34,347 nt of DNA, from IMG/VR virus record IMGVR_UViG_2693429686_000003; one strand, 5' to 3'. This document shows, one piece after another, positions 5,536 through 34,347 of the stretch. The DNA comes from a virus (lineage: Duplodnaviria > Heunggongvirae > Uroviricota > Caudoviricetes). The translations under genes were made by a program, and so were the position numbers. The stretch's first letter is position 1. Each line of letters opens with the position of its first letter. The notes under the pieces are model-generated. The model searched no databases. It saw only the letters and a program-made list of their open reading frames with translations, and was not told the DNA's origin.

Positions 5536-5555
<20 letters not shown>

Positions 5556-6855
5556 TCTCCCGCATATTGCCAGCATGGCTTTTAATGAGCCGCTGATGCT
5601 TGAACCCGCCTATGCGCGGGTTTTCTTTTGTGCGCTTGCAGGCCAGCTTGGGATCAGCTGCCTGACGGATGCAGTATCCGGCGACAGCCTGACTGCCGGA
5701 GAGGCACCCGCGGCGCTGGCGTTATCCGGTGATGATGACGGACCACGACAGGCCCGCAGTTATCAGGTAATGAACGGCATCGCCGTGCTGCCGGTGTCCG
5801 GCACGCTGGTCAGCCGGACGCGGGCGCTGCAGCCGTACTCGGGGATGACCGGTTACAACGGCATTATCGCCCGTCTGCAACAGGCTGCCAGCGACCCGAT
5901 GGTGGACGGCATTCTGCTCGATATGGACACACCGGGCGGAATGGTGGCGGGAGCATTTGACTGCGCTGACATCATCGCCCGTGTGCGTGACATAAAGCCG
6001 GTATGGGCGCTGGCCAATGACATGAACTGCAGCGCAGGTCAGCTGCTTGCCAGTGCCGCCTCCCGGCGTCTGGTCACGCAGACCGCCCGGACAGGCTCCA
6101 TCGGCGTCATGATGGCTCACAGTAATTACGGCGCTGCACTGGAGAAACAGGGCGTGGAAATCACGCTGATTTACAGCGGCAGCCATAAGGTGGATGGCAA
6201 CCCCTACAGCCATCTACCGGATGATGTCCGGGAAACATTGCAGTCCCGGATGGATGCAACCCGCCGGATGTTTGCACAGAAGGTGTCGGCATATACCGGC
6301 CTGTCCGTGCAGGCTGTGCTGGATACCGAGGCTGCAGTGTACAGCGGTCAGGAGGCCATTGATGCCGGACTGGCTGATGAACTTGTTAACAGTACCGATG
6401 CGATCACCGTCATGCGTGATGCACTGGATGCACGTAAATCCCGTCTCTCAGGAGGGCGAATGACCAAAGAGACTCAATCAACAACTGTTTCAGCCACTGC
6501 TTCGCAGGCTGACGTTACTGGCGTGGTGCAAGCGACGGAGGGCGAGAACGCCAGCGCGGCGCAGCCGGACGTGAACGCGCAGATCACCGCAGCGGTTGCG
6601 GCAGAAAACAGTCGCATTATGGGGATCCTCAACTGTGAGGAGGCTCACGGACGCGAAGAACAGGCACGCGTGCTGGCCGAAACCCCCGGTATGACCGTGG
6701 AAACGGCCCGCCGTATTCTGGCCGCAGCACCACAGAGTGCACAGACGCGCAGTGACACTGCGCTGGATCGTCTGATGCAGGGGGCACCGGCACCGCTGGC
6801 TGCAGGTAACCCGGCATCTGATGCCGTTAACGATTTGCTGAACACACCAGTGTAA
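5536..6855 (+). CDS. C: Head maturation protease gpC (S49/ClpP-like), GTG start
   Basis: The longest ORF (5401-6855) contains the lambda gpC sequence starting at VTAELRNLPHIASMAFNEPL; a GTG at 5536 gives 439 aa, the lambda gpC length, and overlaps the end of B. Confidence 0.93.
6250..6855 (+). CDS. nu3: Scaffolding protein gpNu3, nested in-frame in the 3' third of C
   Basis: In-frame ATG at 6250 (MDATRRMFAQ...) 606 nt before the C stop, matching the recalled lambda C/Nu3 nested arrangement. Confidence 0.7.
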   Translation: MDATRRMFAQKVSAYTGLSVQAVLDTEAAVYSGQEAIDAGLADELVNSTDAITVMRDALDARKSRLSGGRMTKETQSTTVSATASQADVTGVVQATEGENASAAQPDVNAQITAAVAAENSRIMGILNCEEAHGREEQARVLAETPGMTVETARRILAAAPQSAQTRSDTALDRLMQGAPAPLAAGNPASDAVNDLLNTPV

Positions 6856-29891: not shown

Positions 29892-29902
29892 GTGGGGTGA
29901 AT

Positions 29903-32900
29903 ATGGCAGTAAAGATTTCAGGTGTACTGAAAGACGGCACAGGAAAACCGGTACAGAACTGCACAATCCAGCTGAAAGCAAAACGTAACAGCACCACGGT
30001 GGTGGTGAACACGCTGGCCTCAGAAAATCCGGATGAAGCCGGGCGTTACAGCATGGACGTTGAGTACGGTCAGTACAGCGTTATTCTGTTGGTGGAAGGA
30101 TTCCCGCCGTCACATGCCGGGACCATCACCGTGTATGAAGATTCCCGACCCGGTACGCTGAATGATTTTCTCGGTGCCATGACGGAGGATGATGCCCGTC
30201 CGGAGGCACTGCGCCGTTTTGAGCTGATGGTGGAAGAGGTGGCGCGTAACGCGTCCGCGGTGGCACAGAACACGGCAGCCGCGAAGAAATCAGCCAGCGA
30301 TGCCAGCACATCAGCCCGTGAGGCGGCAACCCATGCGACTGATGCTGCAGATTCAGCACGTGCAGCCAGCACGTCAGCCGGACAGGCCGCTTCGTCGGCT
30401 CAGTCAGCGTCTTCCAGCGCAGGAACGGCATCAACAAAGGCCACTGAAGCCTCAAAAAGTGCTGCCGCTGCAGAGTCCTCAAAAAGCGCGGCGGCTACCA
30501 GTGCCGGTGCGGCGAAAACGTTAGAAACGAATGCGGCAGCGTCACAACAATCAGCAGCCACTTCTGCATCCACCGCGACCACGAAAGCGTCAGAAGCTGC
30601 CACCTCAGCCCGGGATGCGTCGGCTTCAAAAGAGGCGGCAAAATCATCAGAAACGAACGCATCATCAAGCGCCAGTAGCGCAGCTTCCTCGGCGACGGCG
30701 GCTGCAAATTCTGCGAAGGCGGCCAAAACGTCCGAGACGAACGCCAGGTCTTCTGAAACGGCAGCGGGACAGAGTGCCTCAGCTGCGGCAGGCTCAAAAA
30801 CAGCGGCTGCGTCGTCTGCCAGCGCCGCGTCAACAAGTGCCGGGCAGGCCTCAGCCAGTGCCACCGCCGCCGGAAAATCGGCAGAAAGCGCCGCATCATC
30901 CGCTTCAACAGCCACAACGAAGGCTGGCGAAGCCACTGAGCAGGCCACGGCAGCAGCGAGGTCAGCTTCCGCAGCGAAGACATCCGAAACGAACGCGAAA
31001 GCGTCGGAAACCCGTGCAGAATCCTCAAAAACGGCTGCCGCATCGTCCGCCAGTTCGGCGGCGTCATCGGCATCATCGGCGTCTGCTTCAAAAGATGAGG
31101 CGACCAGACAGGCGTCAGCAGCGAAGGGCAGCGCCACGACGGCATCCACGAAGGCGACAGAGGCTGCTGGTAGTGCGACGGCAGCAGCTCAGAGCAAAAG
31201 TACGGCGGAATCTGCAGCAACGCGCGCTGAGACAGCGGCAAAACGGGCAGAGGATATTGCATCCGCCGTGGCGCTTGAGGATGCGAGCACGACGAAAAAG
31301 GGGATAGTACAGCTCAGTAGTGCGACTAACAGCACTTCCGAGTCACTGGCGGCAACACCAAAAGCCGTTAAGGCCGCGTATGACCTGGCTAACGGGAAAT
31401 ACACCGCACAGGATGCAACGACAGCACAGAAAGGGATAATCCAGCTAAGCAGCGCGACCAACAGCACGTCTGAAACGCTGGCGGCAACGCCAAAGGCAGT
31501 AAAAGCAGCCAATGACAATGCTGAGAAACGTCTGCAGAAAGATCAGAACGGTGCGGATATCCCTGGCAAAGACACCTTTACGAAAAATATTGGTGCCTGC
31601 CGTGCCTTCGGTGGGTCAGTAAGCACAACAACAGGAAACTGGACGACTGCACAGTTTATCGAGTGGCTGGATTCTCAGGGAGCATTTAACCATCCATACT
31701 GGATGTGCAAGGGTTCCTGGTCTTATGGCAATAATAAAATCATTACTGATACTGGCTGCGGTAATATTCATCTCGCCGGAGCTGTCATTGAAGTAATGGG
31801 GATAAAGTCAGCGATGACGATCCGCATTACCACTCCGACCACATCCAGCGGTGGCGGAACAACCAACGCCCAGTTTACCTATATTAATCACGGAACAGAT
31901 TATTCACCTGGCTGGCGAAGGGACTATAACTCCAGAAATAAGCCAACGGCATCAGAGATCGGGGCGCTACCGTCAGGTGGAACAGCAGTATCATCAGTTA
32001 ATCTGGCTTCAAAAGGTCGGGTAGCCGCGCTGACAGACAATACGCAGGGGGCAGCAGGTCTTGAGTTATACGAGGTGTATAACAACGGATATCCAACAGC
32101 GTATGGAAATATCATTCACCTGAAAGGGATGACAGCCGTTGGCGAAGGTGAGTTACTCATCGGCTGGAGTGGTACAAGCGGTGCTCATGCTCCGGCATTT
32201 ATTCGTTCACGACGGGATACGACCGACGCAAACTGGTCGCCGTGGGCGCAGCTTTACACCTCGGCTCATCCTCCTGCAGAGTTTTATCCAGTCGGTGCAC
32301 CAATCCCGTGGCCATCAGATACCGTTCCGTCTGGTTATGCCCTGATGCAGGGGCAGACTTTTGACAAATCTGCTTACCCGAAACTTGCAGCCGCTTATCC
32401 GTCAGGCGTGATCCCTGATATGCGTGGCTGGACGATTAAGGGCAAGCCCGCCAGTGGTCGTGCCGTATTGTCTCAGGAACAGGATGGCATTAAATCGCAC
32501 ACCCACAGCGCCAGCGCATCCAGTACGGATTTGGGGACGAAAACCACATCGTCGTTTGATTACGGCACTAAATCCACGAATAACACCGGGGCGCATACGC
32601 ACAGTCTGAGCGGCTCTACAAGTTCAGCTGGGGCCCACCAACATAGTCAGACTGGGCCCAGAACGAATAGCGGGAGTCAACCTACTGGAATGTTTCCGGC
32701 AGGGAGTACTCAAGTTAGCGGGACTAATCAGGTTGGTATCAGTGGCTCATTAACCAGTGGCACCTCCCAATGGGTAGGTAAATCATCTTCAGAAGGAAAC
32801 CATACACACTCACTGTCCGGCACAGCAGCATCTGCGGGTGCACACGCGCATACTGTCGGTATTGGTGCTCATACGCACTCTGTTGCGATTGGTTCACATG

Positions 32901-32986
32901 GACACACCATCACCGTTAACGCTGCTGGTAACGCGGAAAACACCGTCAAAAACATCGCATTTAACTATATTGTGAGGCTCGCATAA
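29903..32986 (+). CDS. stf: Side tail fibre protein Stf: conserved N-terminus, long Ala/Ser/Thr-rich repeat region, two phage-tail-fibre repeats (…[14 protein letters not shown](S/T)[11 protein letters not shown]…), His-rich C-terminus
   Basis: N-terminus ([30 protein letters not shown]…) and C-terminus (…[31 protein letters not shown]) match lambda Stf; the ORF is 1029 aa from GTG 29897 against 774 aa in lambda. Confidence 0.93.
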
Positions 32987-33567
32987 TGGCATTCAGAATG
33001 AGTGAACAAGCACGGACCATAAAAATTTATAACCTGCTGGCCGGAACTAATGAATTTATTGGTGAAGGTGACGCATATATTCCGCCTCATACAGGTCTGC
33101 CTGCAAACAGTACCGATATTGCACCGCCAGATATTCCGGCTGGTTTCGTGGCTGTTTTCAACAGTGATGAGTCATCGTGGCATCTCGTTGAAGATCATCG
33201 GGGTAAAACGGTTTATGACGTGGCTTCCGGCGACGCGTTATTTATTTCTGAACTCGGCTCATTACCGGAAAATGTCACCTGGTTATCCCCGGAAGGGGAG
33301 TTTCAGAAGTGGAACGGCACAGCCTGGGTGAAGGATACGGAAGCAGAAAAACTGTTCCGGATCCGGGAGGCGGAAGAAACAAAAAACAGCCTGATGCAGG
33401 TAGCCAGTGAGCATATAGCGCCGCTTCAGGATGCTGTGGATCTGGAGATCGCAACGGAGAAAGAAACCTTGTTGCTGGAAGCTTGGAAAAAGTATCGGGT
33501 GTTGCTGAACCGTGTTGATACATCAACTGCACCGGATATTGAATGGCCAGTAGCACCTATAGGGTAA
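32986..33567 (+). CDS. tfa: Tail fibre assembly chaperone Tfa
   Basis: 193-aa ORF matching lambda Tfa ([61 protein letters not shown]…); start overlaps the stf stop (TAATG). Confidence 0.94.
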
Positions 33568-33650
33568 ATTCGTAATGATTACCTAAATACGTTATTCTTT
33601 TGTTAAAAAAGTGATTTTGCTATAGGTAGGGAGTATGTTCTTGGATTAAG

Positions 33651-33684
33651 AATAAAAAATCGCCATGAAAGAGCTTCATGGCGA
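33651..33684 (-). terminator. Rho-independent terminator on the minus strand (10-bp perfect stem tcgccatgaa/ttcatggcga, 5-nt loop, then TTTTTTATT on the minus strand)
   Basis: Plus-strand aataaaaaa-tcgccatgaa-agagc-ttcatggcga; the T-run follows the hairpin only on the minus strand, so it would end a leftward transcript from the AT-rich region. Confidence 0.6.
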
Positions 33685-34316
33685 GTACATAAACGTACAA
33701 AATGTGATGAAAGTAGAGTGGCGTAAGCCACTATATTAAGATATGACAATAGCGAAGAAAAGTAAATAACATTTTATGGACGTTTAATTGTTAATTATAA
33801 AAACTAGAGTGCCCGATATTGTTTATCTTGCTTTAAAATAATGTACTCAAACCAAATTTTTGAGCTAAAAGCTCAAATAATATAAATGCAATAATAATGT
33901 TTAATAAGACAATTAGCTTGCTTTGTATTTTCATTTCGGAATACTGTTAAGTAACTTTGATGACCCTAACAATAGATCGGAATTTTCTTAGAGTCAATGG
34001 TCACTGTTTTTGCTTGCAAAGCAAATGTTTTGGTGGTTATAAGTCGTCTTAATATAGTCACGCATGCAACTTGTTCCATGCGGAGATTAAAGATTGGAAT
34101 ATAACGCGAAGATGGAATTAAATTACATTTGCAATAATTAATTTATTATTACTCAATAATTACCGATATTATTATTGTAAATTAATCATTAGAATGCAAA
34201 AAGAAATGTAACGGCAAAATAAGAGGACGATAGCTGAGAAAAAAGCGTGCTTTCCCAATCTGGGGCAAATCACGTCTGAATGACACCTGAAAACAGGTGG
34301 TAGCCTCAAGAAGGCT

Positions 34317-34347
34317 GGTGATGCTGCCAACTTACTGATTTAGTGTA
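34317..34347 (+). mobile_element. First 31 bp of an IS1 element (terminal inverted repeat GGTGATGCTGCCAACTTACTGAT…), cut by the window edge
   Basis: Exact match to the recalled IS1 terminus GGTGATGCTGCCAACTTACTGATTTAGTGTA. Confidence 0.8.

Follow-up and report, generated by a model that had tools for sequence, protein, structure and literature searches.

The stretch of DNA analysed here, which we refer to as “the window”, comprises the 34,347 nucleotides (nt) of the virus record IMGVR_UViG_2693429686_000003 (Caudoviricetes) and is a lambda-like prophage of the type that is integrated at attB-lambda, on the ybhB/bio side. Our analysis is concerned with the region at positions 33568-34316, which is located between tfa, the tail fibre assembly gene (32986-33567, plus strand), and the left end of an insertion sequence (IS), IS1. 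In the list of open reading frames (ORFs), tfa closes the rightward late operon, and its annotation in relatives is tail fiber assembly protein. An earlier note, made from the letters of the window, had described the region as accessory cargo of the kind that follows the tail fibre genes, and the region is indeed such cargo: its minus strand carries a 33-codon ORF that encodes a predicted YncL-like membrane peptide, a promoter-like site ahead of this ORF and, after it, a conserved, structured block that ends in an intrinsic terminator.

The region downstream of tfa and its variants

As had been noted, the region is AT-rich: its GC content is 0.315 (ranging from 0.27 to 0.365 in a 200-nt profile), versus 0.552 for positions 1-33567 of the window and 0.485 for tfa. 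It is equally true that ORFs of at least 60 amino acids are absent, the longest ones having 52 amino acids (34172-34330, entering IS1) and 48 amino acids (33603-33749). In IS1-free relatives, including the isolated phages mEp332, PhiR70_1 and ev099, the spacer that follows tfa is approximately 1.5 kb long, and past it are found a plus-strand AraC-family gene, IS remnants, and int/xis or the host junction, in this order. The spacer is a mosaic: its first 578 bp (33568-34145), which we refer to as “the module”, have boundaries that are common to three genomic contexts. At the Qin/ydfJ site, a copy of the module with approximately 96% identity follows a tfa remnant, and copies with 80-93% identity adjoin the sit operon, the boundary at 34145 being common to the Qin-site and the sit-adjacent copies; the AT-rich joint that follows in the window (34146-34231) is restricted to the attB-lambda prophage type.

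The module is conserved in related prophages, one of the two circumstances whose absence would, according to the earlier note, refute its proposal: we have collected 34 distinct variants from more than 100 loci, most of them 96-100% identical. The most informative comparison is the one with the lineage L007/L106, which has approximately 80% identity to the window and which we refer to as “the diverged lineage”. The whole 749 bp are found in mEp332 (isolated on K-12 MG1655), PhiR70_1 and ev099, i.e. in four phage records that represent three different phages, and a 161-bp block plus terminator is present in 827 of 5,426 complete Escherichia coli genomes, always on the chromosome.

The 33-codon ORF and its relationship to YncL

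The sole conserved ORF of the region, which the earlier note had missed, is located on the minus strand at 33934-33833, with its ATG at 33934-33932 and its TAA at 33835-33833, and encodes the peptide MKIQSKLIVLLNIIIAFILFELLAQKFGLSTLF. It is unbroken and of equal length in 34 of the 34 variants; the two ORFs that adjoin it are repeatedly broken among the same variants. One of these two is the ORF that had been found by hand and described as a weak ORF of 35 codons: it exists, on the minus strand at 33966-34079 and with a length of 37 amino acids, but it is not conserved and is not a gene, its ATG having become ACG or AAG in many variants, with internal stops and frameshifts in others. The other one, the 48-amino-acid ORF, has likewise been rejected as a gene, on account of start loss, stops or frameshifts in many variants. 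The changes that the 33-residue peptide shows across the variants are I18V, A24D and five mostly conservative ones in the diverged lineage. Relative to this lineage, the ORF has 18 nt differences, distributed over the three codon positions as 7:1:10, with a nonsynonymous divergence (dN) of 0.094, a synonymous divergence (dS) of 1.03 and a dN/dS ratio of 0.09, i.e. the ORF has been under selection of the coding type.

The comparison of three variants of the peptide with protein families has returned a single family, NCBIfam YncL (NF000537), with E-values of 1.3e-5, 3.7e-5 and 7.5e-5 and scores of 25.0, 23.5 and 22.5 bits, versus 68.6 bits for YncL of K-12; the match spans residues 1-28, and the profile has 30 positions. 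Ten composition-matched shuffles of the peptide gave zero YncL matches, and the BLASTP alignment of the peptide with K-12 YncL has 39% identity and 64% positives over 28 residues (E 2e-7). Searches of Pfam, PHROGs and PADLOC with the peptide gave no match, and a profile-free search of 1.84 billion proteins returned only the peptide itself and one frameshifted variant; a tblastn search of phages gave no match, not even in the four phage records that contain the identical DNA, presumably on account of the low-complexity filter. Among 15 billion proteins, the peptide is recorded as one cluster of two members, from one contig each. RefSeq annotates nothing beneath the sequence among the matches listed, and neither the RNA nor the peptide sequence was found in a full-text search of the literature.

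YncL of E. coli K-12 (b4598, 31 amino acids; the “stress response membrane protein YncL” of NF000537) belongs to the same size class and has the same build: two to three polar or basic residues are followed by an 18-residue hydrophobic helix, a basic residue, and F-G, with M1, S5, K/R6, L10, N12, A16, L19, F20, L22, K/R26, F27 and G28 as common positions. The two differ in their surroundings: the YncL locus is chromosomal, between patD and ortT, and yncL is followed by only a short, dissimilar hairpin, whereas the gene of the peptide is phage-borne, located after tfa, and has a long conserved 3' untranslated region (UTR). The product of the 33-codon ORF is, as judged from its sequence, a predicted single-pass small membrane peptide of the YncL-like kind.

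A palindrome that had been suggested as a possible operator is located inside this ORF. The palindrome is real, reading TTTGAGCT-TTT-AGCTCAAA at 33877-33859, but the operator role is rejected: the palindrome occupies codons 20-25, within the stretch F-E-L-L-A-Q-K, and is not a separate element, and its GAGCT is AAACT in L007/L106.

The promoter-like site and the leader

A minus-strand promoter prediction, which had been proposed as a check, has yielded a candidate that we refer to as P1 (33969-33997, minus strand), composed of a -35 hexamer TTGACT (33997-33992), a 17-bp spacer and a -10 hexamer TATTGT (33974-33969). P1 is the best minus-strand site of the promoter scan and is located 35 nt upstream of the ATG; its predicted transcription start, at about 33961, corresponds to a leader of 27 nt. 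Apart from single-variant exceptions, its hexamers and their 17-bp spacing are kept in all lineages, with diverged flanks; in the diverged lineage the -10 hexamer is TATCGT, and the identity to this lineage is 0.83 at P1 and 0.57-0.63 further out.

Upstream of P1, the right part of the module (34016-34145) may be a regulatory region. The conservation of 34033-34092 in L007, considered as a regulatory block, has been rejected: the segment is approximately 98% identical to the Qin-site type, and its high identity is due to recombination with that type and not to selection.

The leader and the peptide bear on an explanation in which the unit would be similar to a type I toxin-antitoxin system, i.e. 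a depolarising peptide toxin with its translation checked by mRNA structure or by an antisense RNA, and in which the cassette would stabilise the prophage or abort superinfection. YncL is a stress-induced inner-membrane peptide, and its overproduction depolarises the membrane, condenses the nucleoid and lowers viability (PMC12542507); the phage peptide, being small, single-pass and hydrophobic with charged ends, fits the type I toxin class, its ORF has no Shine-Dalgarno sequence, and its UTR is long and structured. We nevertheless regard this explanation as improbable, since YncL is itself not regarded as a toxin, no antitoxin RNA candidate has been found, PADLOC gives no match, and the pairing of the 5' leader with the 3' UTR is no better than in shuffles, the fraction of shuffles that pair at least as well being 0.10-0.85 in four lineages. 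A hok-like fold-back of the leader on the 3' UTR is not supported: it is present in the minimum-energy fold, and one A-U to G-C exchange in it seemed compensatory by eye, yet its duplex energy does not surpass that of shuffles in any of the four lineages.

The terminator and the conserved 3' block

The leftward unit ends in an intrinsic terminator at 33650-33684 on the minus strand, with its stem-loop at 33684-33660 and its U-run at 33659-33654; it reads TCGCCATGAAG-CTC-TTTCATGGCGA, followed by TTTTTTATTC (six T). The stem has 11 pairs according to the scan, and 10 pairs with a 5-nt loop according to RNAfold (-15.2 kcal/mol). The region contains two terminator-like sites, versus 0.6 ± 0.7 in shuffles. 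The plus-strand hairpin is not followed by a T-run, in agreement with the earlier claim that the terminator can be read on the minus strand only. Among 13 distinct variants the stem is invariant but for one change, at the loop-closing pair (G-U to A-U), and in two lineages the U-run is interrupted (UUUCUUAUU). The earlier note had proposed that a short leftward transcript begins within 33685-34316 and ends at this terminator, with a small protein or a small RNA as its possible product; the sequence is consistent with such a transcription unit, which appears to contain a small protein gene and possibly a small RNA as well.

Next to the terminator, at 33685-33775 on the minus strand (the limits are approximate), is located a conserved, structured block that is a candidate for the body of a 3'-derived small RNA (sRNA), and which we refer to as “the 3' block”. 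A 6-bp hairpin (AGUGGC-UUAC-GCCACU) occupies 33732-33717 of it, followed at 33716-33685 by a single-stranded linker rich in C and U, CUACUUUCAUCACAUUUUGUACGUUUAUGUAC; conservation is highest in a core at 33734-33655. Within the window, the linker has no complementary site of at least 10 nt. The identity to the diverged lineage is 0.90-0.97 here (over 33643-33732), versus 0.53-0.67 on either side: it is 0.53-0.63 between the tfa stop codon and the terminator, 0.53-0.67 in the variable spacer that separates the 3' block from the stop codon of the ORF (33763-33837), and 0.77-0.87 over the 33-codon ORF. The 3' block together with the terminator folds with -34.6 kcal/mol, versus -14.6 ± 2.7 kcal/mol in shuffles (z -7.5). 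No reading frame accounts for its conservation; a 24-amino-acid plus-strand ORF at 33665-33739 gives no indication of being coding, as four of its four differences from the diverged lineage are nonsynonymous in our reading of the alignment. In the alignment fold, changes in stems are mostly compatible with pairing, including one series from G-C to G-U to A-U, and the remaining pairs are invariant or wobble-compatible, with little sequence diversity; the evidence for the structure of the 3' block comes from thermodynamics and conservation, and not from covariation.

A TATAAT hexamer at 33799-33794 on the minus strand, read from the sequence, is a possible internal promoter for such an sRNA. It has no recognisable -35 hexamer and was not picked by the promoter scan; in the diverged lineage it reads TACAAT, a conserved island within the diverged spacer. 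In NCTC9064 (L162 2571-2581), a deletion of 80 bp, equivalent to window positions 33721-33800, spares the ORF and the terminator but takes away the TATAAT hexamer and the 5' half of the 3' block.

Three kinds of known RNAs offer a comparison with the 3' block. PasB of the enteropathogenic E. coli (EPEC) strain E2348/69 is an 83-nt Hfq-dependent sRNA that is encoded in antisense orientation between the tail genes I and J of a lambdoid prophage, and that often occurs in remnant prophages and in non-EPEC strains (PMC8550237; bioRxiv 10.64898/2026.05.13.724894); we have located it at L164 2762-2844, on the minus strand of E2348/69. PasB and the unit described here both have an antisense position in a lambdoid tail region, a TATAAT-type -10 hexamer and an intrinsic terminator, and IS009, a frequent neighbour of PasB (bioRxiv 10.64898/2026.05.13.724894), also adjoins our element; PasB, however, is located between genes I and J and its expression is proven, whereas the present unit follows tfa and is predicted from its sequence. 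The two are not the same RNA: their local alignment scores 16, versus 14-15 ± 2.3 in shuffles, the loci are different, and the window has no copy of PasB. The second kind are the sRNAs that are derived from 3' UTRs (reviewed in PMC9438474), such as KilS, from the 3' end of kilR in the Rac prophage (PMC8175672); as in these, conservation peaks at the 3' end of the predicted mRNA, beside the terminator and after a variable spacer. The third is MicC (RF00121), which has a similar length and layout, and which gives a minus-strand match at 33646-33773 (22.8 bits, E 0.87); a relationship with MicC has been rejected, as the gathering score is 90, the seed (AUGCCUUUAU) is absent, and the pairing with the ompC leader is matched by 46% of shuffles. 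A relationship with Esr41 has also been rejected, its Rfam score being far below the threshold.

These observations could also be explained by an sRNA alone, i.e. by an Hfq-type RNA of approximately 110-135 nt that would extend from the TATAAT hexamer to the terminator, the 33-codon ORF being incidental. Hfq-type sRNAs are expected to end in an intrinsic terminator and a U-tail, as is the case here; the order of hairpin, U-rich linker, and terminator with U-tail is the appropriate one and has a precedent in PasB; the 3' block is more strongly conserved than the ORF, with a poorly conserved spacer of 75 nt between them, and the TATAAT/TACAAT hexamer persists in that spacer. For non-coding DNA, however, the dN/dS ratio of the ORF, its 7:1:10 distribution and its unbroken frame in 34 variants are unexpected, the YncL match points to coding, and the hexamer, as stated, has no -35 partner and escaped the scan. 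An sRNA without a gene appears unlikely to us; the two readings are not mutually exclusive, and the one as a gene is the stronger.

The right end of the region and neighbouring genes

Positions 34317-34347 (plus strand) are the left inverted repeat of IS1, the only end of the element that is located within the window: as had been claimed, they are IS1, identical in 31 of 31 positions to the first 31 nt of the 768-bp IS1A of strain 2009C-3133, with an identical junction. The idea of a remnant of cargo disrupted by IS1 does not apply to the leftward unit, which is complete and 320 bp away from IS1. What IS1 does split is a separate unit of approximately 245 bp, located upstream of an AraC gene, whose left 85 bp are at 34232-34316. 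This has become apparent from what lies beyond IS1, which had been suggested as a check: in IS1-free relatives, the complete unit is followed by the gene of an AraC regulator similar to YdeO and GadX.

The last 60-odd nt of the complete unit (L001 6668-6912) are the 3' part of a tRNA-Ser(CGA)-like sequence, which we take to be tRNA-Ser from its likeness to serU; ARAGORN found no complete tRNA in the unit. Many E. coli prophages have the unit close to their ends, and it resembles a relic attachment site or a small mobile element. In the O26 strain RM8426 (L008 3001-3206), it is shorter, approximately 206 bp, ends at the anticodon region of the tRNA, and is located between two direct copies of a sequence that is annotated as “capsid protein”. 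The AraC-family regulator (L001 7506-8249, 247 amino acids) is closest to YdeO (149 bits) and GadX (111 bits), both scores being far below the equivalog cut-offs; YdeO and GadX are acid-resistance regulators, and the gene is carried by mEp332, ev099 and PhiR70_1, where IS remnants follow it. In 2009C-3133 (L002 6750-7517, compared with L001 6750-7300), the insertion of IS1 is accompanied by a deletion of 551 bp on its right side, which removes the tRNA-Ser fragment and places IS1 at 206 bp from the start of the AraC gene, and IS1 might drive or alter the expression of the regulator in this strain.

On the left side of the region, the covariance-model search of Rfam has found a full-length match to IS009 (RF02111; 218 bits, 33329-33527, plus strand), located wholly within the coding sequence of tfa and the only Rfam match in the whole window; this “sRNA candidate” family may be a model of conserved tfa coding DNA. 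The tail fibre gene that precedes tfa (29897-32986, plus strand, 1029 amino acids) has a long low-complexity stretch rich in Ala, Ser and Thr, which yields several spurious ORFs of 109-258 amino acids in other frames and on the opposite strand.

Discussion

Phage morons have a promoter and a terminator of their own and a deviant base composition, and are located between phage genes, lambda lom and bor being examples. We consider it probable that the unit described here is a phage moron, with an unannotated YncL-like membrane peptide and a conserved structured RNA tail. Like morons, it is composed of a candidate promoter, a gene and a terminator, it has 31.5% GC in a phage of 55% GC, it is located at the end of the late operon, in the opposite orientation, and related phages have or lack it as a whole; unlike morons, it has a predicted product of 33 residues that no annotation pipeline calls, and an RNA block that is more conserved than the coding part. 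The earlier note was right in general, in that it expected a short leftward transcript with a small protein or a small RNA, and wrong in the specifics.

Positions 33650-33997, with an upstream part that extends to about 34145, would thus form a self-contained accessory unit at the end of the tail-fibre operon, transcribed against the operon. From P1, a candidate promoter of the sigma-70 type, an RNA of approximately 308 nt would start near 33961; after the leader of 27 nt it would encode the membrane peptide, followed by a 3' UTR of approximately 150 nt, whose last 80-120 nt (the hairpin, the C/U-rich stretch, the terminator hairpin and the U-tail) surpass the rest of the module in conservation. 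Transcription would stop approximately 85 bp before the stop codon of tfa and would therefore send no antisense RNA into the late genes. P1 presumably fires in lysogens, where the peptide, by analogy with YncL, would insert in the inner membrane and lower the membrane potential or otherwise alter the membrane physiology of the lysogen. The 3' block may accumulate as a stable sRNA derived from the 3' end, either through processing or through transcription from the internal TATAAT hexamer, and PasB is a precedent for antisense Hfq-dependent sRNAs in lambdoid tail regions; alternatively, it would stabilise or control the mRNA of the peptide.

A number of results weigh against a moron with a YncL-like gene and a functional RNA tail. 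The YncL score of 25 bits is below the curated cut-off of NF000537, which is 35 bits, and for this reason we refer to the peptide as YncL-like and not as a YncL equivalog; the peptide is also short and hydrophobic, and a frameshifted version of its ORF occurs on two short contigs. The leader of the ORF has no recognisable Shine-Dalgarno sequence, whereas yncL of K-12 carries AAGGUGG. Promoter-like sites are no more numerous in the region than expected by chance (4 versus 3.7 ± 2.4), so that the argument for P1 is one of position and conservation. As for the 3' block, covariation is nearly absent, with one compensatory pair in 40 and a covariation term of -0.23 kcal/mol, and the covariance-model search, proposed as a check in the earlier note, matches the region to no known RNA family: no Rfam family reaches its gathering threshold there, and MicC and Esr41 are the only sub-threshold matches. 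Outside E. coli, nothing has been found: a protein-pattern scan of 185,579 species genomes gave no confirmed match, and the 52 matches of an 18-mer scan are all from unrelated taxa, none of them from Enterobacteriaceae. Finally, the number of independent lineages is only about four, with recombination between them, so that some of the “conservation” may be due to recent exchange. In variants of the L105/L037 type, a left flank matching the 80% lineage meets a right part matching the 93% lineage within the conserved 3' block (33643-33732), which, as read from these sequences, acts as a recombination joint.

A further explanation would be that the region has no function of its own and is AT-rich mosaic DNA that joins tail-fibre modules to cargo; its conservation would then reflect only a recent spread and its use as homology for recombination, and its hairpins would do no more than end or stabilise transcripts. 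The 96-100% identity of most copies agrees with this view, as do the crossovers inside the block, the lack of covariation, the absence of a RefSeq gene there among the matches listed, and the tfa 3' remnants that flank the module in some genomes. Such flanks are seen at L006 and L007, where a second tfa 3' remnant, in the same orientation, follows the module (5580-5700 and 5546-5645, respectively), so that the module is bracketed by tfa 3' sequences, a hint of movement by recombination. Joint DNA of this kind would not, however, explain why the uneven conservation in the deeply diverged lineage tracks the promoter, the ORF with its synonymous-type changes, the 3' block and the terminator, nor why the neighbouring ORFs decay, and we give this view very little credence.

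The preferred reading as a moron can be extended to a cargo of dual function, in which one transcript would give rise both to the YncL-like peptide and to a trans-acting sRNA that is cut from its 3' end and regulates host genes; the peptide would then tune the membrane potential of the lysogen, for instance in order to keep out superinfecting phages, to blunt antimicrobial peptides or to promote dormancy. We hold this extension to be rather doubtful; if it is true, temperate phages have copied a stress peptide of their host and spread it to approximately 15% of E. coli.

Small membrane peptides and prophage-borne small RNAs are routinely missed by annotation. If the unit is expressed, about one in seven E. 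coli genomes would have received, through a phage, an additional copy of a stress peptide with a chromosomal relative that depolarises the membrane; this would be a new lysogenic-conversion function, as well as a handle on the purpose of YncL-type peptides.

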